Notes: generated by a model from the sequence alone, not told the origin. Positions 2,683 through 18,853 are shown, counted from the stretch's first letter. The stretch is 64,000 nt of DNA from a virus (IMGVR_UViG_2595698395_000001:8370-72369), one strand, 5' to 3'. Numbers and translations: made by a program.

Positions 2683-3072
2683 TTAAATTTGATTTAAAAA
2701 TTTATAAAATGCAGTTAAAAAAGGTTTTACGTTAGTTGAATCACTCCATCCTGCAAAACCTATAAAGCCTTCGCCTTCTTTATCTTGAGTATTAAATGAA
2801 ATAGCCTCTCTTCTTTCAAAGTGAACTTGTTTTCCGTCTATAACACCTTTAACCATAAAGAAGCATTTTTTTAGGGTTCCATCTTCTTTGTACTCAATAT
2901 CCCTTTCTCTTAATCTACACAAAGTCATAGTAAAACCGTCGTTTTCAAAAACAGATAACTCTTCTTTTAAAAGCCTCGTTAATACTCCTATTTCTTTACT
3001 GCCAATATCCGAGTAGGTTAACCCTTTTTTAGATACTTCTTCTCTTAGATCACTTCTTTTCATGTTTTCCAT
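2683..3072 (-). CDS. Hypothetical phage protein
   Basis: 129-aa ORF in the leftward operon. Confidence 0.65.
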   Translation of the reverse strand: MENMKRSDLREEVSKKGLTYSDIGSKEIGVLTRLLKEELSVFENDGFTMTLCRLRERDIEYKEDGTLKKCFFMVKGVIDGKQVHFERREAISFNTQDKEGEGFIGFAGWSDSTNVKPFLTAFYKFLNQI

Positions 3073-3105
3073 AATACGTTTTTTAGATTAAATTATTAAT
3101 GAGTT

Positions 3106-3325
3106 CAAATATATGTAAATATTTGTAAACTTGTGTATTTTATTATGAAAAATAATTGTTGTTCAATGGTTGTTCAAATTTCATTGGACCAATGACGGCA
3201 AGTGCCGCCAGTACTGCATTGACTTCTTTGGCTCCGTGCCCGGAGTTAGAATACGTTTTTTAAAAGAAATACTTGCACAGTATGTTTTTTGGATATATAT
3301 TTACATATCTTTACAAATATGTACA
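3106..3325. promoter_or_regulatory. Divergent control region: minus-strand Bacteroidota -7 box (TATATTTG, 3106-3113), phased TGTAAA/TTTACA repeats and a GC-rich palindromic core
   Basis: TGTAAA at 3114 and 3124; TTTACA at 3300 and 3310, TGTACA at 3320; TCATTGGACCAATGA, CGGCAAGTGCCG and CTCCGTGCCCGGAG between 3181 and 3245. Confidence 0.5.
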
Positions 3326-3346
3326 GAAATTAAAAACAAATAAATT

Positions 3347-3526
3347 ATGGAATTATTTACAGAAGTAGAATTTAATAAAAACGAATTTGATAAGATAGAT
3401 GAAGTCAGATTTAAGTTAGGTGAAGATGGATGGGAGGAAATTAACAAGACTGAACATAGAGTTATCAAATCAAATAAAGATGTAGTTGTTGGAGCAGTTA
3501 AATATAAATGGAGGCGAATAATTTAA
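3347..3526 (+). CDS. Hypothetical 59-aa protein
   Basis: Manual ORF MELFTEVEF...WRRII with an A-rich Bacteroidota-type leader. Confidence 0.55.
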   Translation: MELFTEVEFNKNEFDKIDEVRFKLGEDGWEEINKTEHRVIKSNKDVVVGAVKYKWRRII

Positions 3527-3565
3527 CCTACAAATCAAAAACTAATTTAATTAAATAAATGAATT

Positions 3566-3904
3566 ATGAATAAGCAGAAAGAAAACAAAGAAACAGAAAC
3601 TAAGCATAAACTAAGTAATGTGTTATCTCGTTTGCATGATGTTGGTGCTCATTTCAGGCTTGAAGACTATGAAGATGAATTTGTTTTATCAATAATTGAT
3701 AGAGGCATTTATCCTAGAATTTGGTCGGATAATTTTGCAGATAATCAGGTAGTTATTATTGCTGAAACGGATGATAACTTAATTAACAGAAACACCATTC
3801 ATTCTAAAGATTGGAAGGAAAGGTGGTATGGCGAAACTTTAGATGAAGTACTTTATGAAGCTTATGAATGGTTATCATCTTTAAATATCGAAAAAACAAC
3901 ATAA
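3566..3904 (+). CDS. Hypothetical protein, possible decayed distal cassette
   Basis: ORF track; in-frame GAT-GTT-GGT (LHDVG) at 3641 resembles the cassette junction peptide. Confidence 0.6.
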   Translation: MNKQKENKETETKHKLSNVLSRLHDVGAHFRLEDYEDEFVLSIIDRGIYPRIWSDNFADNQVVIIAETDDNLINRNTIHSKDWKERWYGETLDEVLYEAYEWLSSLNIEKTT

Positions 3905-3917
3905 AAACAAATGAATT

Positions 3918-4259
3918 ATGATAACAGAAAATGATATTAAGATAGTAGAAGCTATTAAAAAGGAAATTGACAAAAAGGCAACGACCAATGAAAATACAAT
4001 AGATTGGGAAGCAGTACAAAAGATTGAAGTACTCGATAGATTAGTAAATAATTTACGTATAGCCAATGTTAGCTACTGTGTCGTTTCTGATGAAGATAAA
4101 GCCAATAATTACTATACTGCAGAATGTGGTAAGTGCGATTGGTGGGGAAGCTCTAAGCTATTAGAGGGCGGTGGATCAATAGCTGATACAGGTGATTATT
4201 TTGACTGCTCTTGCCCTGTGTGTGGAAATGATGATGTAGGTGAAAGGCATTGTAGCTAA
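3918..4259 (+). CDS. Cassette protein: helical N-module plus C-terminal Cys zinc-ribbon
   Basis: Junction peptide LRIANV|SYC at GTT 4068; CGKC...CSCPVC; the stop TAA lies within GTAGCTAAC. Confidence 0.7.
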   Translation: MITENDIKIVEAIKKEIDKKATTNENTIDWEAVQKIEVLDRLVNNLRIANVSYCVVSDEDKANNYYTAECGKCDWWGSSKLLEGGGSIADTGDYFDCSCPVCGNDDVGERHCS

Positions 4260-4319
4260 CGGTTTGTGTATGATTTCGGGCGTGAATTAAGCTAAATATT
4301 AATAGATAAAAACAAAATT

Positions 4320-4487
4320 ATGAGTAAGTATAAACCAGAAATAGACGAAAACAAACCTTTTGATTTTGAAACAAACTTTGTTGTTTGTCAATGTGAGGAA
4401 TCAGACATATCTGATAGACATTTGGGTGATGCAGGGTATGATTGGTGCAAAAATTGCAAAAGGCCATTAGCAGTTATTGATTATTAA
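4320..4487 (+). CDS. Cassette protein, 55 aa, Cys zinc-ribbon
   Basis: Manual ORF MSKYKPEID...CQC...WCKNCKRPLAVIDY. Confidence 0.6.
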   Translation: MSKYKPEIDENKPFDFETNFVVCQCEESDISDRHLGDAGYDWCKNCKRPLAVIDY

Positions 4488-4491
4488 TGAT

Positions 4492-4613
4492 AACGCTTGC
4501 AGGTATGTTTAGTGCCTGATTAAATAGTATAAATTTTTAAAATACAGATAACGATGAAAAAAGAACAGAACTTGAATAATGCAGAAACACAGGCATTAAA
4601 TATACCTGTTGTT
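4492..4613 (+). repeat. attC-like hairpin enclosing the start of ORF 4554
   Basis: AAC-gcttg-CAGGTATGTTTAGTGCCTG ... CAGGCATTAAATATACCTG-tt-GTT. Confidence 0.8.
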
Positions 4614-4859
4614 ATGTCCCGTTTTGATATTGAGCGTAAGGATTTGTATGAATATGACAAACCAAAAGAACGCACAAGAAAACGACTTACTGAAATGTCT
4701 GAATGTGGTATGGAAGAAACAGGTATTGCTTCATTTGGTTATAATGGCATAATGAGTGGTTTGTATATCGAAAAAGTGTGGGGATATTCTGATGAAGATT
4801 TCAAAGATTATATGGATTGGGCGAAAGGTTTAATTGCAGCTTCCTTAAATGGGGCATAA
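4554..4859 (+). CDS. Cassette protein, hypothetical
   Basis: Junction ALNIPVV|MSR; ends GTTATGTCCCGTTT / AAATGGGGCATAAC. Confidence 0.7.
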   Translation: MKKEQNLNNAETQALNIPVVMSRFDIERKDLYEYDKPKERTRKRLTEMSECGMEETGIASFGYNGIMSGLYIEKVWGYSDEDFKDYMDWAKGLIAASLNGA

Positions 4860-4904
4860 CGGTGATAGGTATGGTTAGAAAATTTAACGATTAAATAAAA
4901 CGAA

Positions 4905-5192
4905 ATGAAAACGCCAGAAGAAATATTAAATGAAGTTGCTACTGAAAATATGATAAATATACAGCAAATGGTAACAACTAAACAATTAGCAATAATTGCA
5001 ATGAGAAGATACGCCAAATTATACCACGAAAGTAAGGTTAAAAATTTGGATATACAACGTGTTAGCCAACAACGTGAACTGTTAAAGTTTTTTTCTTCTC
5101 AATTAAGCGAGAACCTTGATATAGATGTAGGAATGAATTATATAACAGAAGAAGATATTGAAGAATGCCTAAAAAACTTTAATTGCGGGTAA
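4905..5192 (+). CDS. Cassette protein, hypothetical
   Basis: Junction LDIQRV|SQQRELL; stop lies within GGGTAAC. Confidence 0.65.
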   Translation: MKTPEEILNEVATENMINIQQMVTTKQLAIIAMRRYAKLYHESKVKNLDIQRVSQQRELLKFFSSQLSENLDIDVGMNYITEEDIEECLKNFNCG

Positions 5193-5242
5193 CAATGCTA
5201 TATAGCTAACTACACAAACTAATTGAATTAAAACAATAAATT

Positions 5243-5467
5243 ATGATTAAAGAAAACAGTAACCAAGAAAGCAAAAGCAATGAACTTTATATATTGTTAC
5301 CTACTGTAGAAAATACGGACAAAGAAGAACTAAACTTAATTAACAGTCTAAAAGAATATATAGATTGGTATGGTTGCAGAGATAGTAAAATGGATAAAAT
5401 ACTGCCAATAGAACAACAAGAAGGAATTGTAGTAACAGCAATGACTTTATTAAAAGAACTAACGTAG
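5243..5467 (+). CDS. Cassette protein, hypothetical
   Basis: Junction LYILL|PT; ends GTTACCTACTGTA / TATTGTTGGTAAC. Confidence 0.6.
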   Translation: MIKENSNQESKSNELYILLPTVENTDKEELNLINSLKEYIDWYGCRDSKMDKILPIEQQEGIVVTAMTLLKELT

Positions 5468-5484
5468 TATTTTATATTGTTGGT

Positions 5485-5607
5485 AACATATTTGGGTATG
5501 GAAAGTACGAGTAAATAAACAGTAATTTTTAGTAAAACACAAAATAAAGTAAATATGAAATTAAATAGAAATAGTAAGATAAGTAAGTATTTTTTATACC
5601 CGTTGTT
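5485..5607 (+). repeat. attC-like hairpin enclosing the start of ORF 5555
   Basis: AAC-atattt-GGGTATGGAAAGTAC ... GTATTTTTTATACCC-gtt-GTT. Confidence 0.8.
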
Positions 5608-5770
5608 ATATGTAGTGCTTACAATACCTTTTGCGCTTTTTGCAATATTGTACTACAGCTCTAAAATAACACGAAGTTTAAGTTATCTATGCGTTTTTAA
5701 AATAGAAAGCGCAAAGCAAGAAATCACAGACTTTTGGAGCATAGAAACAGCTTTGGGAGATGTATTTTAA
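5555..5770 (+). CDS. Cassette protein, small membrane protein
   Basis: Hydrophobic FLYPLLYVVLTIPFALFAILYY; ends GTTATATGTAGTG / CATTACATATAAC. Confidence 0.6.
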   Translation: MKLNRNSKISKYFLYPLLYVVLTIPFALFAILYYSSKITRSLSYLCVFKIESAKQEITDFWSIETALGDVF

Positions 5771-5832
5771 CATTACATATAACGTTAAAATATATGGCTA
5801 GTTGCGGAATTAATAACTTAAAATAACAAGTA

Positions 5833-6177
5833 ATGACAGAATTAGACAAAAAGATTAAGGATTTAAAAGACTTTATTAAACAGAAAACAGACCAAGGAAC
5901 TGCAAACTACTTAGGTAAAGAAATACGAGAAATTTGCGGAATGGTAGAAACTGAGCAATTAAATAAAGAGAAAAACAAACTTACCTCTAAAAATGAAGCA
6001 CTTAACCAGCAATTAATTTTATCTGGTGTTAGCGGTAGTAATTTACTACCTGATGGATGGAAGGTTTATGAATGTACTGACTGCCAAGAGATAAATGTAA
6101 AAAAAGATAATAGACAAATAACCGTTGGATTATGTGATAACTGTGAACATCCATTATGGAATGATGATGTTGATTAG
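5833..6177 (+). CDS. Cassette protein: coiled N-module plus CxxC..CxxC zinc ribbon
   Basis: Junction LILSGV|SGS; CTDC and CDNC; ends GTTAGCGGTAGTA / TATTACCGCTAAC. Confidence 0.7.
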   Translation: MTELDKKIKDLKDFIKQKTDQGTANYLGKEIREICGMVETEQLNKEKNKLTSKNEALNQQLILSGVSGSNLLPDGWKVYECTDCQEINVKKDNRQITVGLCDNCEHPLWNDDVD

Positions 6178-6237
6178 TATTACCGCTAACGGTTAGTTGT
6201 ATGGCTTGTTGCCGAATAATCACAAAACAAAATAAAG

Positions 6238-6549
6238 ATGAACATATACGAATTTAGTTATTCTGGAGGCGAAACCGATTGGGTTTTTGCACCAAACATT
6301 AAAGAGGCAAAAGATTTCTATTTAAAATTTACAGGTTGTGGCGACTTAACATTAACTACGGTTAAAAGAGTGCCTAAAAGTAAATGGAATGAAATGTACT
6401 TATTAGACCCAAATTATAGTGAGCCAGATGAGGACGAAGAAGATTATAATGAAGAAGATTATTCTTGTGGGTTAAAAATTATAGAAACTTTTGCAGAGTA
6501 TGCAGAAAGAAATACTATTACTGATATGATAGCAACAACCGAGTATTAA
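6238..6549 (+). CDS. Cassette protein, acidic hypothetical
   Basis: ORF track; lies between left arms at 6188 and 6554. Confidence 0.7.
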   Translation: MNIYEFSYSGGETDWVFAPNIKEAKDFYLKFTGCGDLTLTTVKRVPKSKWNEMYLLDPNYSEPDEDEEDYNEEDYSCGLKIIETFAEYAERNTITDMIATTEY

Positions 6550-6553
6550 TGGT

Positions 6554-6644
6554 AACGGCTCTGGGCTATGATTTCGTGCCTATATAATGACGGAACATTG
6601 AATTAAGCACCAATCTAACAAGGGTATGAATTATAGCCCTTGTT
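6554..6644 (+). repeat. attC-like hairpin with non-coding loop
   Basis: AAC-ggctct-GGGCTATGATTTCGTGCC ... GGTATGAATTATAGCCC-tt-GTT. Confidence 0.85.
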
Positions 6645-6659
6645 GTAAATAGTAAAATT

Positions 6660-6812
6660 ATGGCAAAGTATAAGATTGAAATTAACCAAACTTGGAGTGA
6701 AGAAGTAATTGTAAATGCAAAGAACGCAACCGAAGCAAAGAAATTAGCTTGGGAAAAGTGGAAAGCTAAAAAAAGTAACTATAATTTATTTGTGGAGAAA
6801 GAACCTGAATAA
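6660..6812 (+). CDS. Cassette protein, 50 aa
   Basis: Manual ORF MAKYKIEINQTWSEEVIVNAKNATEAKKLAW...; flanks GTTGTAAATAGTAAAATTA / TAATTTTATTGTTTACAAC (17/19 complementary). Confidence 0.7.
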   Translation: MAKYKIEINQTWSEEVIVNAKNATEAKKLAWEKWKAKKSNYNLFVEKEPE

Positions 6813-6825
6813 TTTTATTGTTTAC

Positions 6826-7020
6826 AACGAAAATAGATATGAATTGATTTTTAAACGAATAAATAAGATGAAAATAAAAGAAGCAATACAAGTATTAAAA
6901 GACCATAATATATGGCGAAAAGGTGAAAATGAAGAAGTGCAAATGACAGACCCTAAAAAATTAGGAGTTGCCATTGATACAGTAGTAAATAAGTTTGAAA
7001 ATTTGTTTATATCTGATGTT
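6826..7020 (+). repeat. attC-like hairpin with a ~150-nt coding loop
   Basis: AAC-gaaaat-AGATATGAATTGATTTTTAAAC ... GTTTGAAAATTTGTTTATATCT-gat-GTT. Confidence 0.75.
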
Positions 7021-7185
7021 ACCCAATGTGAAGCCACAAAGACAACAAATAAAATCGAAGAAATACAGGTTTCTGTAGATAAAAAACTATTTGTTGAGTT
7101 ATATAACTTTGCTTATAAAAAAGCAGTAAAAACAAATACAGTAGCAGAATTACACGATATTGATAGAAGGCTTCATGGTGGGTAA
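6868..7185 (+). CDS. Cassette protein, two modules (probable start MKIKEAIQ at 6868 rather than 6790)
   Basis: Junction LFISDV|TQCEA; ends GTTACCCAATGTGAAGCC / GGCTTCATGGTGGGTAAC. Confidence 0.7.
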   Translation: MKIKEAIQVLKDHNIWRKGENEEVQMTDPKKLGVAIDTVVNKFENLFISDVTQCEATKTTNKIEEIQVSVDKKLFVELYNFAYKKAVKTNTVAELHDIDRRLHGG

Positions 7186-7230
7186 CGCTAAGTATATGAG
7201 CCGTTTTTTCTATGGCTTATATACATTGTT
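7184..7230 (+). repeat. Minimal 47-bp attC-like hairpin
   Basis: AAC-gctaa-GTATATGAGCCGT-tttttct-ATGGCTTATATAC-att-GTT. Confidence 0.85.
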
Positions 7231-7261
7231 ACCTGTTGTACGGATTAATTAAAAATGGAAT

Positions 7262-7990
7262 ATGAAAAGAAACGAAATATATTTAGGGGATTGTTTAGAA
7301 TTAATGCCTAAACACGTAGAAGATAAAAGTATTGATATGATTTTTTGCGATTTGCCTTATGGAACTACACAATGCAAATGGGATAGTATTATTGATTTAG
7401 ATAAGTTGTGGAACGAATACAGAAGAGTAATAAAAGATAATGGTGTAATAGTTCTTTTTGCTTCTCAGCCATTTACAAGTATATTGACAAGTAGTAATTT
7501 AAAGATGTTTAAATACTCTTACACTTGGGATAAGATAACCAAAACAAACCACTTAAATGCTAAAAAGCAACCATTAAGACAAGTTGAAGATATTTGTGTA
7601 TTCTACAAAAAACAACCGACTTACAAGCCACAAGGATTGATTGAATGTGAAGTTTCTAATTTTAGACCAAATCATTTTAAATATAAAAAAGGTGAAAAGG
7701 TTTATGGAGAGCAAAAAGAACATGGTAACAAAAGCACTTATACAAACTATCCAAGTAACCTAATACAATACAGTAACGGGAATCATAATAGTTTGCACCC
7801 TACACAAAAGCCTTTAGATTTAATTGAGTATATGATAAAGACGTACACCAACGAAGGAGATTTAATACTTGATAATACTTGCGGAAGTGGAACAACGGGA
7901 TTAGGAGCAAAAAATCTTGGACGAAACTTTATTATGATGGAGCAAGACCCTAAATACTATGATGTAGCTTGCAAAAGAGTACTAACGTAG
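7262..7990 (+). CDS. Site-specific DNA methyltransferase (N6-A/N4-C, beta class) carried as a cassette
   Basis: DLPYG catalytic motif, HPTQKP, DNTCGSGTTG SAM-binding motif; flanks GTTACCTGTTGTAC / GTATTGCAGGTAAC. Confidence 0.9.
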   Translation: MKRNEIYLGDCLELMPKHVEDKSIDMIFCDLPYGTTQCKWDSIIDLDKLWNEYRRVIKDNGVIVLFASQPFTSILTSSNLKMFKYSYTWDKITKTNHLNAKKQPLRQVEDICVFYKKQPTYKPQGLIECEVSNFRPNHFKYKKGEKVYGEQKEHGNKSTYTNYPSNLIQYSNGNHNSLHPTQKPLDLIEYMIKTYTNEGDLILDNTCGSGTTGLGAKNLGRNFIMMEQDPKYYDVACKRVLT

Positions 7991-8036
7991 TATTGCAGGT
8001 AACAATGTTATATAACTAATTCAAAAAACTGAATCT

Positions 8037-8273
8037 ATGGAAACTACTGCAAAACAAGTGACTTTAAATATAATAGATGGTAAATTTACATCTTTAGAAT
8101 TGCAAAATTTACTTCAATTAATTGCACAAGAGTTGAAATTACAAACTACATCCAATTATGCTAAAGAAAACAAACTATCTTTTAATGGAGTTAAAAACTT
8201 TAGGCCTCATATTTTAATTGATGGAATCAAATTTCATTCAGACGGAATTATAGAAAATAGCTTACCTTTTTAA
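8037..8273 (+). CDS. Hypothetical protein, possibly DNA-binding
   Basis: 78-aa ORF immediately upstream of the integrase. Confidence 0.55.
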   Translation: METTAKQVTLNIIDGKFTSLELQNLLQLIAQELKLQTTSNYAKENKLSFNGVKNFRPHILIDGIKFHSDGIIENSLPF

Positions 8274-8291
8274 TAAAAAAAACTTCGGGAA

Positions 8292-9578
8292 ATGGCAACA
8301 ATAAGACTAGTAACAAGAAGCAAGAAAAACCCTTGCAATTTAAACATTCGATTTTCTGCAGGAAGGGAGAACAACTTCTACTTGCCTACAAAAGTCTTTG
8401 TTAATCCAAACCATTGGGATAATAAAAAATCGAACTACAAAAACTCTAGCGAAATAGAAGATAGAATGATTAAAGCGGCTAAATTTGAACGCTTAAAATC
8501 TGATATTTTAAACGAGTATAACACTGCTTATATGAATGGCGAAGTTACCGATCCTCAATGGCTAGAAGAAGTTGTTAAGGACCTGTTTGATCGTCCAGAA
8601 AAAGAGAAAGGAAACAAAGTTCGTGAGCATTTTGTGTACTACTTGGATTTTTGTGAGTATTGGTTGAAGGAAATTGCACCGACCTGGAAGACAGAAAAGA
8701 ATAAATTCATGTCAAAAAGAGCAATTCAACAGTACGACACCTTCGTATTGGCCTTTAAAAATTTTCAAAACAGTTCTACAGGAAGGAGATATCGTATAAA
8801 AGATGTAAATAGTGTTGTTTTAAACGATTTCTCGACTTATCTGTGTGACGAATCTAAGTTTGCCCCTACGACATCGAAACGTTTAGTAGGTCGCGTTAAA
8901 TTCTTTTTAAACAGAGCAGAGAAGACCGGAATAAAAACAGATCCAAGCTTTAAAGAACGAGTTTATGTATCTAAAGAGGAAGGAGATATTTTGGTTCCGT
9001 ATCTTAACGAAGAGGAAATTAGTAGAATTTTCAATTTAAACCTGGAGCACGATCATATTTTAGATAACATCCGGGATAGTTTTATAATTAGTTTGTGGTC
9101 GGGTCTTAGAATTTCGGATTTCAATAATAACCTGAAGGCCGATAACATAGAAGGAGATTATATTAGTATAAAAACAAATAAGACTGGTAGTTGGGTGACA
9201 ATTCCACTTCATAACCAAGTTAAATTCGTGCTTAGTAAGCGTTTTGGTAATTTGCCAGCTAAATTTAGTGACAAGCTTTTTAATAAGCACATCAAAACAA
9301 TATGCATGCTTGCCGAAATTGACGAAGATATTAAAGGGAAGTTATTCGATAAAGAAACGAAGCGCAAACTTACGGGTATCTATCCAAAGTATAAATTAAT
9401 TAGTTCGCACTCTGGACGTCGAAGTTTTGCCAGTAACCTCCATGGCTTCGTGCCTAATCACATACTTTCGGATCTTGGTGGTTGGTCCAGTGAAAAAATG
9501 ATGCTTCACTATGTTAAACGAACAAAAAAAGAAAGTGCAGAAATTTTAAAAAACATTTGGGATGAAAAATATAAATAG
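8292..9578 (+). CDS. int: Tyrosine recombinase/integrase of Bacteroidota phage/transposon type (arm-binding N-domain, SAM-like and catalytic domains)
   Basis: SGLRISD (R), KT, SSHSGRRSFA (HxxR), LGGW...HY (catalytic Tyr). Confidence 0.92.
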   Translation: MATIRLVTRSKKNPCNLNIRFSAGRENNFYLPTKVFVNPNHWDNKKSNYKNSSEIEDRMIKAAKFERLKSDILNEYNTAYMNGEVTDPQWLEEVVKDLFDRPEKEKGNKVREHFVYYLDFCEYWLKEIAPTWKTEKNKFMSKRAIQQYDTFVLAFKNFQNSSTGRRYRIKDVNSVVLNDFSTYLCDESKFAPTTSKRLVGRVKFFLNRAEKTGIKTDPSFKERVYVSKEEGDILVPYLNEEEISRIFNLNLEHDHILDNIRDSFIISLWSGLRISDFNNNLKADNIEGDYISIKTNKTGSWVTIPLHNQVKFVLSKRFGNLPAKFSDKLFNKHIKTICMLAEIDEDIKGKLFDKETKRKLTGIYPKYKLISSHSGRRSFASNLHGFVPNHILSDLGGWSSEKMMLHYVKRTKKESAEILKNIWDEKYK

Positions 9579-9828
9579 TATGGAAAATAATAAAAATATT
9601 CCTTGGTACGATAAGTCAAAAAAGGATTTAATGTTGGATCACAGTAAAGGTTGGGATTGTCCTGATTGTGGAATTAATTTACCTAGCGGTATTGTTGGAA
9701 TTTCTAGCCATTGGGCGCAGTGCGGAGGTAAAGAAATGCATGAAAATATTGTTGATTTTTTTGATAGAAAAAGTAATGATTTTAATGAGTTAAAAGATAT
9801 ACTAAAAAATAATACTGATGGAGAATAA
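9562..9828 (+). CDS. Small zinc-finger protein
   Basis: CPDC...H...C; the start may be the second Met. Confidence 0.55.
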   Translation: MKNINSMENNKNIPWYDKSKKDLMLDHSKGWDCPDCGINLPSGIVGISSHWAQCGGKEMHENIVDFFDRKSNDFNELKDILKNNTDGE

Positions 9829-10168
9829 TATAATAGTACACGAAAATTATGCTGTTCATTTTAAAATGAGTGATGGTTGGATTAATTTTACAGCATATTT
9901 TATAATCAAAGGAAGTATAGGTCAAGTTGAAACTTTCTGGTACACAGATAAGGACGACGAGCAAAAAACACTAAAAGATTTTGATGAAAATAAAGCATTC
10001 CATAAATTAAAAGGAAGTTATGTTTGGCGTGGAGTTTGGGAAGGAAGATTATACTTCACTGACGAAGAATATTGGAGTGAAGATTTAAAAGAATTGAGCG
10101 ACTTATTTAGTGACACCATCGAGCCTTTTTGTAAAGAAAAAATCACAGAATATAACGATAAAAAATAA
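9818..10168 (+). CDS. Hypothetical phage protein
   Basis: 116-aa ORF overlapping the previous stop. Confidence 0.65.
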   Translation: MENNIIVHENYAVHFKMSDGWINFTAYFIIKGSIGQVETFWYTDKDDEQKTLKDFDENKAFHKLKGSYVWRGVWEGRLYFTDEEYWSEDLKELSDLFSDTIEPFCKEKITEYNDKK

Positions 10169-10255
10169 TAATGGATGCAATCCTGGCGAAGATCTTTATC
10201 ACAATAATTAAACGATTTTAAAATTGTGGCATCGTAACTTTAAAAACAGGACACA

Positions 10256-10290
10256 AAAAAACCCTTACTAGTAATATAGTAAGGGTTTTT
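10256..10290. terminator. Bidirectional intrinsic terminator between convergent operons
   Basis: AAAAACCCTTACTA-gtaata-TAGTAAGGGTTTTT. Confidence 0.85.
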
Positions 10291-10324
10291 AATTTTATGG
10301 TTCTATTTAAAAAATTTCTATAAC

Positions 10325-10567
10325 TTATCTTTTTGCGTTAAAATTAATTTCTGAGTTTATTGCTTTTAATATTCTTGATGCTGTAACTATAGAGGGTCGT
10401 TTTAGCCCTCTGATTATCTTTGAAATATCGCCCTGACTTATACCCGTTTCGCGAGAAATGAAGCCCTGTGTAATTCCTAAATCTTGCATTCTTTCGCTTA
10501 CGTAGTCCGCAAACTGCATAATAATCTCTTGTTCTGTTTCCGTGTGATCGATATAAGTCTGAGCCAT
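10325..10567 (-). CDS. XRE-family (Cro/CI-like) HTH regulator
   Basis: GITQGFISRETGISQGDISKIIRGLKRPS. Confidence 0.88.
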   Translation of the reverse strand: MAQTYIDHTETEQEIIMQFADYVSERMQDLGITQGFISRETGISQGDISKIIRGLKRPSIVTASRILKAINSEINFNAKR

Positions 10568-11881: not shown

Positions 11882-12448
11882 TTATATACTTCTAAAGTAA
11901 TGGCCGTTACTCTCTGAATAGTCATACATTAAGTCCCTTGCTGCTCTTTCCCAGTCAATACAATTGTGAGGCCATGAATTTGATATTTCAACGCCTGTTT
12001 GTTCTGCTAAATCTTCTGCAAAATCTTCATCGCTATTGTATTGACCTGAATAACTATCCTCTAATGCATCAAAAAATTCGTCTATATCATTAATGTCATA
12101 GCTTCCTAGTTCTGCGAATGCTTCTACAATATCAGCATCATAAAAACAATTATCTAACCTATCAAAGTATTCAAATAATTTTTCAAAATCCATACTTTCA
12201 GAATAAAAAGCCTTTGGGAAATCCTCAAAATCTGTTATCATTGTTTCTTCTCTTGGACTGTCTAACGGACTTTTTTCGTCGCACTCTTGGAAGTGGTTTA
12301 AAATATACTCGTTCAATTCTTCTGCATCGCTAAATTGGTCTAACTCTACCCAGTGCCCAAACTCGAATTGTGTCCCATTGTTATAGCTTGCATAATCAGT
12401 TAAAAATATTCTTCCCTTTGTTGCTGTACTTGTTGTTGCTGTTGTCAT
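11882..12448 (-). CDS. ardA: Antirestriction protein ArdA (DNA mimic)
   Basis: Highly acidic; IFLTDYASYNNG..GHWVEL, ITDFE, YSGQYNSDEDFA, IDWERAARDLMYDY..NGHYF. Confidence 0.88.
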   Translation of the reverse strand: MTTATTSTATKGRIFLTDYASYNNGTQFEFGHWVELDQFSDAEELNEYILNHFQECDEKSPLDSPREETMITDFEDFPKAFYSESMDFEKLFEYFDRLDNCFYDADIVEAFAELGSYDINDIDEFFDALEDSYSGQYNSDEDFAEDLAEQTGVEISNSWPHNCIDWERAARDLMYDYSESNGHYFRSI

Positions 12449-18275: not shown

Positions 18276-18746
18276 ATGGACGGAAGAAAACTGCTTGCGG
18301 AGATTGATGCGTACGCTTCCAAGTGTTGGAGGCGTATCAATACCCATTACGGTTATTTTACGTACAGCTTTAGTTCCTACAGGCATAAAGTTATGATTGA
18401 CGATCTTAAAATGAAAGAGTTAATCAATGACTGCGAAGAAGGAAAAATTAGTTACCAGGACATTGTATTTTTTATCAAAATAGTAACCATGCTAAAATTT
18501 AGCAGAGAATTTCACGAAGCTGCAGTGGTCCGGATAACCAAAGAAGACATGAAAGGATTCTGTAATAACAACTCATACAAGTCTAGTAAAGAAAAACTTA
18601 TAGAGTATAAGCTATTGATACCTACCATTAGCCGGAACCATTTCATAATCAACCCAAGGTACATCAATAAGTTCTACAAAACTAAGGTTGATATGTCGCC
18701 AGAGGACTTCAAAGAGTATAAGGAAAAACGATTGAATAAAGAGTAA
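18276..18746 (+). CDS. Possible winged-helix DNA-binding protein
   Basis: KLIEYKLL....HFIINP pattern; family uncertain. Confidence 0.4.
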   Translation: MDGRKLLAEIDAYASKCWRRINTHYGYFTYSFSSYRHKVMIDDLKMKELINDCEEGKISYQDIVFFIKIVTMLKFSREFHEAAVVRITKEDMKGFCNNNSYKSSKEKLIEYKLLIPTISRNHFIINPRYINKFYKTKVDMSPEDFKEYKEKRLNKE

Positions 18747-18853
18747 CTATAGAATTTTCAAATAGTTACTCTTTTTTTTGTTCCAAATCCCGTATAAACC
18801 ACTTTTTTGGTTATATTTGCTTTATACTTATTACAAATTAAACGGGAAACAGT

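Follow-up and report, generated by a model that had tools for sequence, protein, structure and literature searches.

The array and its repeated joints

The stretch considered here, IMGVR_UViG_2595698395_000001:8370-72369, covers bases 8370-72369 of one 72,369-bp phage contig; this window of 64,000 nucleotides (nt) carries, between 3.9 and 8.0 kb, a run of small open reading frames (ORFs) punctuated by pairs of short mirror-image motifs, here called joints. The original prediction for this locus held that most ORFs begin inside a hairpin loop and read through a recombination core, such that exchange at a GTT would bring together different N- and C-terminal modules in frame. The phage is a marine Cellulophaga siphophage, kin of phi19:3, phi18:3 and phi46:3, all three of which are Pachyviridae. 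Across 3300-8300 it matches these relatives at 95-99% identity over just 27%, 8% and 6% of the length, respectively, and the matching parts are the flanks, namely a divergent control region (3054-3349) and everything from 8000 onward, including a 78-amino-acid (aa) ORF and a 428-aa tyrosine recombinase (8292-9578). Between the flanks each phage has its own set of some 8-12 small plus-strand ORFs, and because the ORF set differs from phage to phage between conserved borders, we regard 3.9-8.0 kb as a hypervariable early-gene array. All array ORFs lie on the plus strand, to which the coordinates below refer unless stated otherwise; the antisense ORFs listed there are short and overlap sense genes. 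Pfam names were obtained in the array region just for a DpnD/PcfM-like protein (6660-6812), an N6/N4 DNA methyltransferase (7262-7990) and the recombinase, whose gene closes the array in four related phages and holds the same place in phi19:3, phi18:3 and phi46:3.

The left joint consists of TAAC at the stop codon of the preceding gene, a G, 5-8 nt and GTATG, followed by GAATTAA, an A-rich leader and the next ATG. The right joint lies inside the ORF so opened and consists of TATAC, 1-5 nt and TGTT, followed by A or G; it is the inverted complement of the left joint with a shorter spacer (4-8 nt on the left arm, 1-5 nt on the right). AAC is present after 10 of the 11 stop regions, with GTT plus A or G downstream, and of the attC core consensus RYYYAAC/GTTRRRY just the AAC/GTT portion is well kept. 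The right-joint pattern matches 13 times, at 10 sites, on the plus strand of the 4.15-kb array versus 24 times on both strands of the other 136 kb (expectation in the array 0.73; Poisson P ~1e-12), and the left-joint pattern seven times in the array versus eight elsewhere (expected 0.24). Both patterns were written after the array had been viewed, and these counts therefore describe clustering, not independent discovery. Less constrained descriptions performed poorly: the first fixed-spacing pattern for the left joint did no better than chance, a loose regular expression was not selective, and a loose structural scan of the whole genome returned 142 matches against 157-184 in five shuffles, just its top scores (18.5 and 18.0) falling in the array. 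A scan of 3000-10500 against Rfam 15 gave no match at E up to 1, the content of Rfam in attC models not having been checked. Joints of this type occur in at least three flavobacterial phage families, Pachyviridae, Forsetiviridae and Assiduviridae.

Read from its left end, the array opens with an ORF of 113 aa (3918-4259) that has no left joint upstream, whose codon 51 is the GTT at 4068-4070 and whose C-part is a CxxC...CxxC zinc ribbon. Its stop TAA lies within the TAAC of left joint 1 (4251-4275), which continues with GG, 6 nt and GTATG and precedes a 55-aa ORF (4320-4487) with Val21 at GTT 4380-4382; the Cys-rich C-part of the latter has no start codon of its own, and phrog_5259 extends across the junction. 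The best hairpin of the window follows (4489-4613), built from a left joint (4489-4518), a 71-nt loop that holds the ATG at 4554 and a right joint (4590-4613), with a 26-bp stem including two G.T pairs. The 101-aa ORF that starts in this loop (4554-4859) carries Val19-Val20 at the junction and Met21 directly after it. In the 95-aa ORF at 4905-5192 the junction is Val53 (GTT 5061-5063) and the C-part begins SQQRELL. A short loop-less joint at 5187-5216 combines GGTAAC with a 10-bp palindrome (5197-5206), and a second copy of it, with the palindrome changed on both sides, stands at 7998-8016. These palindromes (5197-5206 and 8007-8016), perfect and located directly after GGTAACAAT, differ by one change per side in such a way that the symmetry is kept, and look like loop-less joints or a protein-binding site.

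Two ORFs carry the right joint out of frame, one of 74 aa (5243-5467; GTT 5296-5298) and a hydrophobic one of 71 aa (5555-5770), whose ATG lies in the loop of a joint pair at 5482-5607 (left joint 5482-5508, right joint 5587-5607) with a 15-bp L stem that includes three G.T pairs. The ORF at 5833-6177 (114 aa) joins a helical N-part to a zinc-ribbon C-part at Val66 (GTT 6028-6030). Its neighbour at 6238-6549 (103 aa) belongs to a whole-length family, matches phrog_5459 at residues 6-103 and has no clear internal joint. At 6551-6661 a left joint (6551-6575) is followed by a compact AAC...GTT hairpin (6613-6648), and the DpnD/PcfM-like ORF starts after the GTT of that hairpin, in the classical cassette layout. 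The next joint pair (6821-7035) is made up of a left joint (6821-6856), a loop containing the ATG at 6868 and a whole N-part, and a right joint (6993-7020) with an extension to 7035; its 105-aa ORF (6868-7185) has an HNxWRRG-type domain as N-part and Val51 at GTT 7018-7020. At 7181-7235 there is a complete short hairpin of ~55 nt (R box, spacer, L box and short loop) with no ORF inside; this site and 6613-6648 are the only compact ones. The methyltransferase has its own start codon, and this orphan enzyme forms a unit between the short hairpin and the joint at 7998.

How far, then, did the predicted layout hold? The claim that ORFs start in the loop stood for seven of the 12 ORFs in 3918-8273, which begin between a left and a right joint, but the ORFs at 6660, 7262 and 8037 start after a joint, and the one at 3918 lacks a left joint. 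The eight junction peptides, with their frames, were all confirmed by checking the sequence. GTT is an in-frame valine in LRIANV|SYC, FETNFV|VC, LNIPVV|MSR, LDIQRV|SQQ, LILSGV|SGS and LFISDV|TQC, that is, in ORFs 3918, 4320, 4554, 4905, 5833 and 6868 (named here by their first base) at codons 51, 21, 19/20, 53, 66 and 51, and it falls in another frame in ORFs 5243 (LYILL|PT) and 5555 (LYPLL|YV). N-parts measure 17-66 aa, against ~17-65 as first noted. Near the joint, the C-parts of ORFs 3918, 4320, 5833 and 6868 contain no in-frame ATG, GTG or TTG, and the start-less C-terminal module is often a zinc ribbon.

Exchange of N- and C-parts at the junction

The two sides of the junction valine were followed separately among homologous proteins. 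Residues 1-51 of ORF 6868 recur in 15 other proteins of 58-158 aa, at 65-84% identity within the N-part, and are followed there by ~14 distinct C-parts that are mutually unrelated except for one pair (P0006/P0009) and include several zinc ribbons; the homologues diverge right after ...F(I/L)S(G/S/D)V. Since the HNxWRRG domain also stands alone (~47 aa) in many IMG/VR contigs, this N-part is an independent gene elsewhere. Members of this stand-alone family share the motif HNKWRRGDD...P..LG.AI and are common across viral contigs, IMG/VR loci L013-L023 being examples; the family received no Pfam name here, and in flavobacterial phages it is the N-part of fusions. Among three phages, dN/dS of the ORF 6868 N-part is 0.5-1.1 on 14-16 differences, too few to separate protein from nucleic-acid constraint.

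For ORF 5833, 68 of 105 matches cover the N-part only (residues 1 to ~43) and continue into C-parts that fall into 58 clusters, while 34 cover the zinc ribbon only and are preceded by N-parts in 28 clusters; two belong to neither class, and no true full-length relative is present among the 105, the single 'full' one (P0023) being so just through BLAST extension at 56% identity with gaps. The same type of zinc ribbon is also found behind the leader of ORF 4554 (...AETQALNIPVV) and behind an HxxWRxG-type N-part. In this set, N-parts that are 98-100% identical carry differing C-parts, and exchange must for this reason be frequent. ORF 4905 behaves alike: among 52 representatives, 33 share only the N-part (27 clusters among the 28 tails of 12 aa or more) and 16 only the C-part, with 15 different heads, one of which (P0191) is a chance match in a 2304-aa protein; two further matches are full-length and weak (38-41%), and one falls in neither class. 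In all three cases the breaks lie at the junction valine, and across the homologue sets the junction conforms to L-x-(I/L)-x-x-V, behind which VGRSEQL or SQQRELL is often found.

ORF 3918, one of the two proteins that had been singled out as bipartite, comes close to the fixed pairing that would speak against shuffling. Exceptions are P0144 and P0145, with another N-part before a kept ...LRIxxV, and P0146, with a short one. Two of its homologues, P0135 and P0140, continue past the usual stop, the latter to 188 aa with a precomputed Pfam PF27001, a sign that the left joint, too, may give rise to fusions by read-through. As regards the bipartite build itself, the AlphaFold model of ORF 5833 (pTM 0.31) has a helix (3-65) and beta strands (76-109), with pLDDT below 50 in between (66-70), and so consists of two parts whose flexible connection coincides with the joint; for ORF 3918 the corresponding support comes from sequence alone, through its invariant CxxC...CxxC.

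Other scans gave little. The N-part of ORF 5833 gave three loci in IMG/VR and two in metagenomes, with no joint in the alignment; a scan of bacterial and archaeal genomes with a protein carrying the 5833-type C-part gave three weak partial matches and no integron context; and tblastn against phage isolates placed ORF 5833 in Gundel_1 alone and ORF 4905 nowhere. In the comparison of phage genomes, bases 6833-7020 match Polaribacter phage Freya_10 at 91% identity, and 6828-7020 match a 70-kb viral contig (L008) at 90%; both blocks stop at ...TGTT and start at, or a few bases past, the C that follows the AA or AG of the left joint. A block in the Freya/Gundel comparison likewise ends at GTT. Bases 4492-4862 are 99% identical in phi19:3, from AACGC to just after CATAACGG (the AACGG end), and because this block includes the upstream joint together with its own GTT junction, ORF 4554 moved as one unit, which therefore does not fit a C-part that always travels with the next N-part. 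The blocks shared with phi19:3, phi18:3 and phi46:3 start at (T)AAC and end at AACGG, and the right conserved flank starts at (T)AAC 8000 in the three phages.

Differences between close relatives thus begin and end at a repeated joint motif, and the ends are found at GTT but also at AAC, at GAATTAAA and in the leader. Judging from these alignments, the exchange points are apparently at both cores (AAC and GTT), and sometimes at other common motifs. The many N/C combinations of ORFs 6868, 5833 and 4905, together with the DNA-level breaks between isolates, lead us to regard in-frame shuffling as real. Of the original proposal, the in-frame joining of different N- and C-modules at GTT is borne out by both proteins and isolate DNA, whereas a site-specific 'recombination core' is something we infer; whole genes also move, from AAC to AAC. 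Two by-eye observations on L008 (2404-2912) belong here as well. One of its left joints has a choice of two right partners, 2558-2574 for pairing through the L box and 2750-2761 (an exact 12-nt match) for pairing through the spacer. An N-part has a copy of GTTAGCGATA on either side, the two being similar, which is the picture that insertion of a module at the core would leave.

Pairing of the joints and candidate mechanisms

Two kinds of long-range pairing can be drawn. Stem A, formed between the L box of a left joint and that of a right joint, with the start codon and N-part in its loop, was evaluated as ungapped pairing at 11 left arms, each compared with 400 control windows. The pairing stands out at 4492 and 6826 (0/400 each) and at 5485 (6/400), and is weak at 6553 (40/400). 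The 9/400 obtained at 7184 comes from an unrelated stretch, because the test begins 45 nt downstream and skips the true partner; scored separately, the hairpin at 7181-7235 reaches 4/300. Stem A is hence above chance at about four of the 11 joints, and the hairpin originally ascribed to the joints in general holds for these. Stem B, which surrounds the C-part, forms between the GTT with its extension and the next left joint's AAC with its extension. With GTT and AAC as anchors, it scores 10.5-19 in eight of 11 units, and a random GTT/AAC pair reaches 10 with P = 0.002. Individual values are 12.5 where the 5' portion of left joint 1 pairs back to 4068-4085, 13 at 4611/4858 (ORF 4554) and at 5296/5485 (ORF 5243), 12.5 at 6028/6188 (ORF 5833), 19 at 6642/6826 (ORF 6660) and 10.5 at 7228/8001, around the methyltransferase. 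A cassette start complementary to the cassette's own R'' is a hallmark of integron cassettes.

The stems are conserved as stems. Thirteen non-redundant L stems from the window, phi19:3, phi18:3, phi46:3, phi19:1, Gundel_1 and L008 comprise 201 Watson-Crick pairs, 30 G.T pairs and three mismatches, and the distal positions show three to four pair types each, i.e. covariation. Two offsets, both fixed, account for the G.T pairs: the G of TATG and the one five bases further along; the G is on the left arm in 28 cases and on the right arm in two. A wider set of 32 stems, from an ungapped search and including duplicates and some chance matches, has 46 G.T, five A.C and 23 other mismatches. The sense strand folds better than the antisense strand, both at 4486-4622 (-32.2 kcal/mol, z -4.6, versus -20.6, z -1.1) and at 6818-7040 (-33.7 kcal/mol, z -2.8, versus -26.2, z -1.5).

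What known system do these features resemble most? The joints share with integron attC sites, and with attC clusters lacking an integrase (CALINs), AAC/GTT cores in inverted orientation, a variable loop, a stop codon that often lies in the first core, a unit start complementary to the unit's own end, promoterless small genes in one direction and a methyltransferase as cargo; a second pair of inverted boxes, with unequal spacers as in attC sites, is clear in its pairing at 4492, 5485, 6826 and 7184. The joints differ in that seven ORFs start within the site and read across its second half, which makes the crossover point a codon, in coding loops of up to ~70-140 nt, in breakpoints at both cores, in that the better-folding strand is the coding one, and in that there is no IntI-type integrase and three carriers are without a tyrosine recombinase. 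The closest published case is a CALIN with attC-like sites in Polaribacter phage P12002L (PMC9892861); two sites were tested there, one of which was recombined by IntI1 while the other, with the same ends as the joints here, was not, the P12002L_attC1 oligonucleotide begins with GCTAACGG and ends with TGTTAGGC, as the joints here do, and related methylase genes are cargo of the cluster.

Fusion by recombination also has precedents. Fused integron cassettes have been described (PMC4670013). The promoter-early stem-loop (PeSL) elements of T4-like phages (PMC2839356, PMC4122927) are likewise repeated short stem-loop motifs between small non-essential genes of variable regions and act as exchange points, but they are intergenic promoter-terminator units that swap whole ORFs by homologous recombination, whereas here one of the joints is within the ORF and fusions result. 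The stems of the joints here, in a further difference, are long-range and have no T-run. Start-less integron cassettes are occasionally translated in bacteria from upstream sequence (ORF-11 in attI1; the N-terminal variants of AAC(6')-Ib). The array shares with them expression as a fusion with codons supplied ahead of a G|TT junction, and differs in that this is the regular build of the array and that the supplied N-parts, of 17-66 aa, are in some cases real domains. Shufflons (Rci/sfx) and the invertible tail-fibre segments of Gin and Cin do have a site in coding sequence, C-parts joined in frame and an adjacent recombinase gene; they work by programmed inversion inside a single genome, where one constant N-part is served by C-segments lying on either strand. 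In the array, by contrast, the ORFs lie on one strand, both parts vary and exchange is between genomes. Polymorphic toxins swap C-terminal domains behind conserved motifs such as VENN, in large secreted proteins with immunity genes; we know of no hairpin joints in them, and in the array the N-parts are swapped too. Our literature searches found no description of such in-frame joints, nor do integrons, hairpins, inverted repeats or mosaicism come up in a paper on flavobacterial phages of the North Sea.

These comparisons lead to a model in which the small genes would be built from separately exchangeable coding modules between two mirror-image joints, with exchange between phages at the AAC and GTT cores. 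As the right joint reads ...L-x-I-x-x-V, exchange there would fuse N- and C-parts in frame, such that any N-part, the supplier of the start codon, could be combined with any C-part, often start-less. The folded joint may direct this exchange as an integron attC does, with the crossover at AA|C on the folded strand, or at G|TT when the other strand folds; folding of either strand, with cleavage at AA|C, would account for both kinds of breakpoint. The candidate enzyme is a tyrosine recombinase of phage or host. Such joint-directed, attC-like exchange is our first-ranked reading of the sequence data, with a probability of roughly 0.45. Its fuller form, in which recombination guided by the folded strand and crossing over on a valine codon joins start-supplying N-modules to start-less C-modules and so amounts to a natural in-frame assembly standard of marine flavobacterial phages, is put forward tentatively and at somewhat under even odds.

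What is the significance of such an array? The unit of exchange here is half a protein and not a gene, and the point of exchange a short, recognizable DNA joint. Should the joint prove to direct recombination, the array would be an integron-like system for making fusion proteins and would extend the few reports of attC-like sites in phages. Phage early regions are rich in small proteins without known function, whose origin is an open question, and the model, if true, would yield small early proteins in a very large number of combinations, their probable use being host takeover or anti-defence. The joints may also serve as a rule for cutting ORFs into modules for functional tests and as a handle for finding such arrays in viromes, and the system is experimentally tractable, Cellulophaga baltica phages being in culture.

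Several observations weigh against attC-like exchange. All evidence for exchange is comparative, resting on genomes and proteins set side by side, and the shuffled homologues come mostly from metagenome assemblies, many on short contigs. Of 25 homologues of ORF 3918, 22 keep both parts together. The whole of ORFs 5243 and 5555 is present in phi19:3, and the whole of the former also in phi10:1; some blocks have a border away from the cores, behind GAATTAAA or in the leader immediately ahead of the ATG. At 4258, 4858, 5191, 5781, 6188 and 8001, stem A does not exceed chance (87 to 380 of 400). Classical attC sites, at ~57-141 bp, are shorter than the long-loop joints here, with their coding loops of 70-140 nt, and in the attC layout ORFs would not start inside the site and run across its right half, as seven do. 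The better-folding strand is the coding strand, and sense-strand folding together with the G.T pairs suits a function in RNA at least as well as one in DNA. No integron-integrase model matched the 428-aa recombinase, which hit just general integrase models (XerD at 29.5 bits versus a cut-off of 329.6), and phi10:1, phi19:1 and Gundel_1 have joints and no PF00589 match.

Many of the same points would be expected if the joints were RNA elements of a polycistronic early transcript, whose stems, with their two conserved G.U pairs, bracket start regions for translation insulation, RNA stability or processing, and which at the same time are portable patches of homology recombined, when genomes co-infect, by RecT-type annealing or replicative copy-choice, in the manner of PeSLs with one patch moved into the ORF. 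The folding bias towards the sense strand, the excess of G.T pairs at two positions (30 versus three mismatches; 46 versus five A.C in the wider set), the presence of joints in phages without any tyrosine recombinase and the block ends at GAATTAAA and in the leader all agree with this explanation. So do the RecT, the SbcC-like ATPase and the metallo-beta-lactamase-fold nuclease that adjoin the array in relatives, the ATPase lying within the window as well, the common 7 aa after the valine of many C-parts (VGRSEQL, SQQRELL), which lengthen the homology to ~39 nt, and the PeSL precedent itself (PMC2839356, PMC4122927). It leaves stem B without a reason, however, a pairing that bridges as much as 770 nt of translated sequence (7228/8001) and has its anchors precisely at GTT and AAC; the right joints of different genes are roughly alike over ~18 nt, which is short for homologous exchange, and yet exchange is frequent; and the break at GTT stays sharp also in proteins that lack the common 7 aa behind it. 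It is because stem B is left unexplained that we rank attC-like exchange above the RNA explanation, which is a possible one all the same, if doubtful.

Two further explanations fare much worse. A classical integron cassette array, with cassettes running from G|TT to G|TT, a C-part always accompanied by the following N-part and new fusions arising just by G|TT insertion, would account for the geometry of the R and L boxes, for cassette starts complementary to their own ends in eight of 11 units and for the very many N/C combinations. As far as the compared sequences go it is already contradicted by two blocks, 4492-4862 (shared with phi19:3), which holds the N- and C-part of one gene and is followed by different loops in the two phages, and 6828-7020, an N-part block present in Freya and L008 without the C-part preceding it; no IntI-type integrase was found either, and we hold it to be very unlikely. 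Least probable, to the point of being remote, is that no special DNA feature exists, L-x-I-x-x-V being a selected peptide linker exposed to rare illegitimate domain shuffling. In the ORF 5833 model the junction does form the hydrophobic end of a helix, with a flexible linker behind it, and the motif is conserved in the fixed-pair family of ORF 3918; but the DNA motif is out of frame in two of eight ORFs and recurs in non-coding hairpins (7181-7235; 127-215 of Gundel locus L006), the right joint complements a left joint that is outside ORFs, and the motif pairs with covarying partners. Two other candidates were set aside: ribosome bypass or splicing over the loop, the frame being common just in the first four genes and the take-off and landing codons mismatched, and a single-strand promoter as in plasmid leading regions, which is ruled out by the folding strand being the coding one. 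An IS200/IS605-type element was considered as well.

Neighbouring genes and other observations

The control region to the left of the array (3073-3346), located between two gene blocks, contains the direct repeat AATACGTTTTTTA at 3073 and 3250 and an inverted repeat at 3107-3122/3297-3312, and is ~96% conserved in three relatives. Beyond it, on the minus strand, lie a gene for a 222-aa protein (2012-2680) with a DnaJ/Anti-TRAP-like CxxCxGxG zinc-finger stretch, which is under the Pfam cut-offs, and a gene for an SbcC/AAA_23-type ATPase (1-1725). In relatives, this ATPase adjoins RecT and a metallo-beta-lactamase-fold protein, forming a recombination module beside the variable array. A search of sequencing runs returned one seawater DNA run with 0.05 of the query words, and no RNA run was listed. 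On the other side, a divergent block of small genes beyond the recombinase includes, on the minus strand, an ArdA anti-restriction protein (11882-12448; PF07275, E 6e-20), a gene also present in phi18:3. Farther along, a strong local hairpin followed by a T-run at 18727-18775, which turned up in the structural scan, resembles an intrinsic terminator and is unrelated to the joints.

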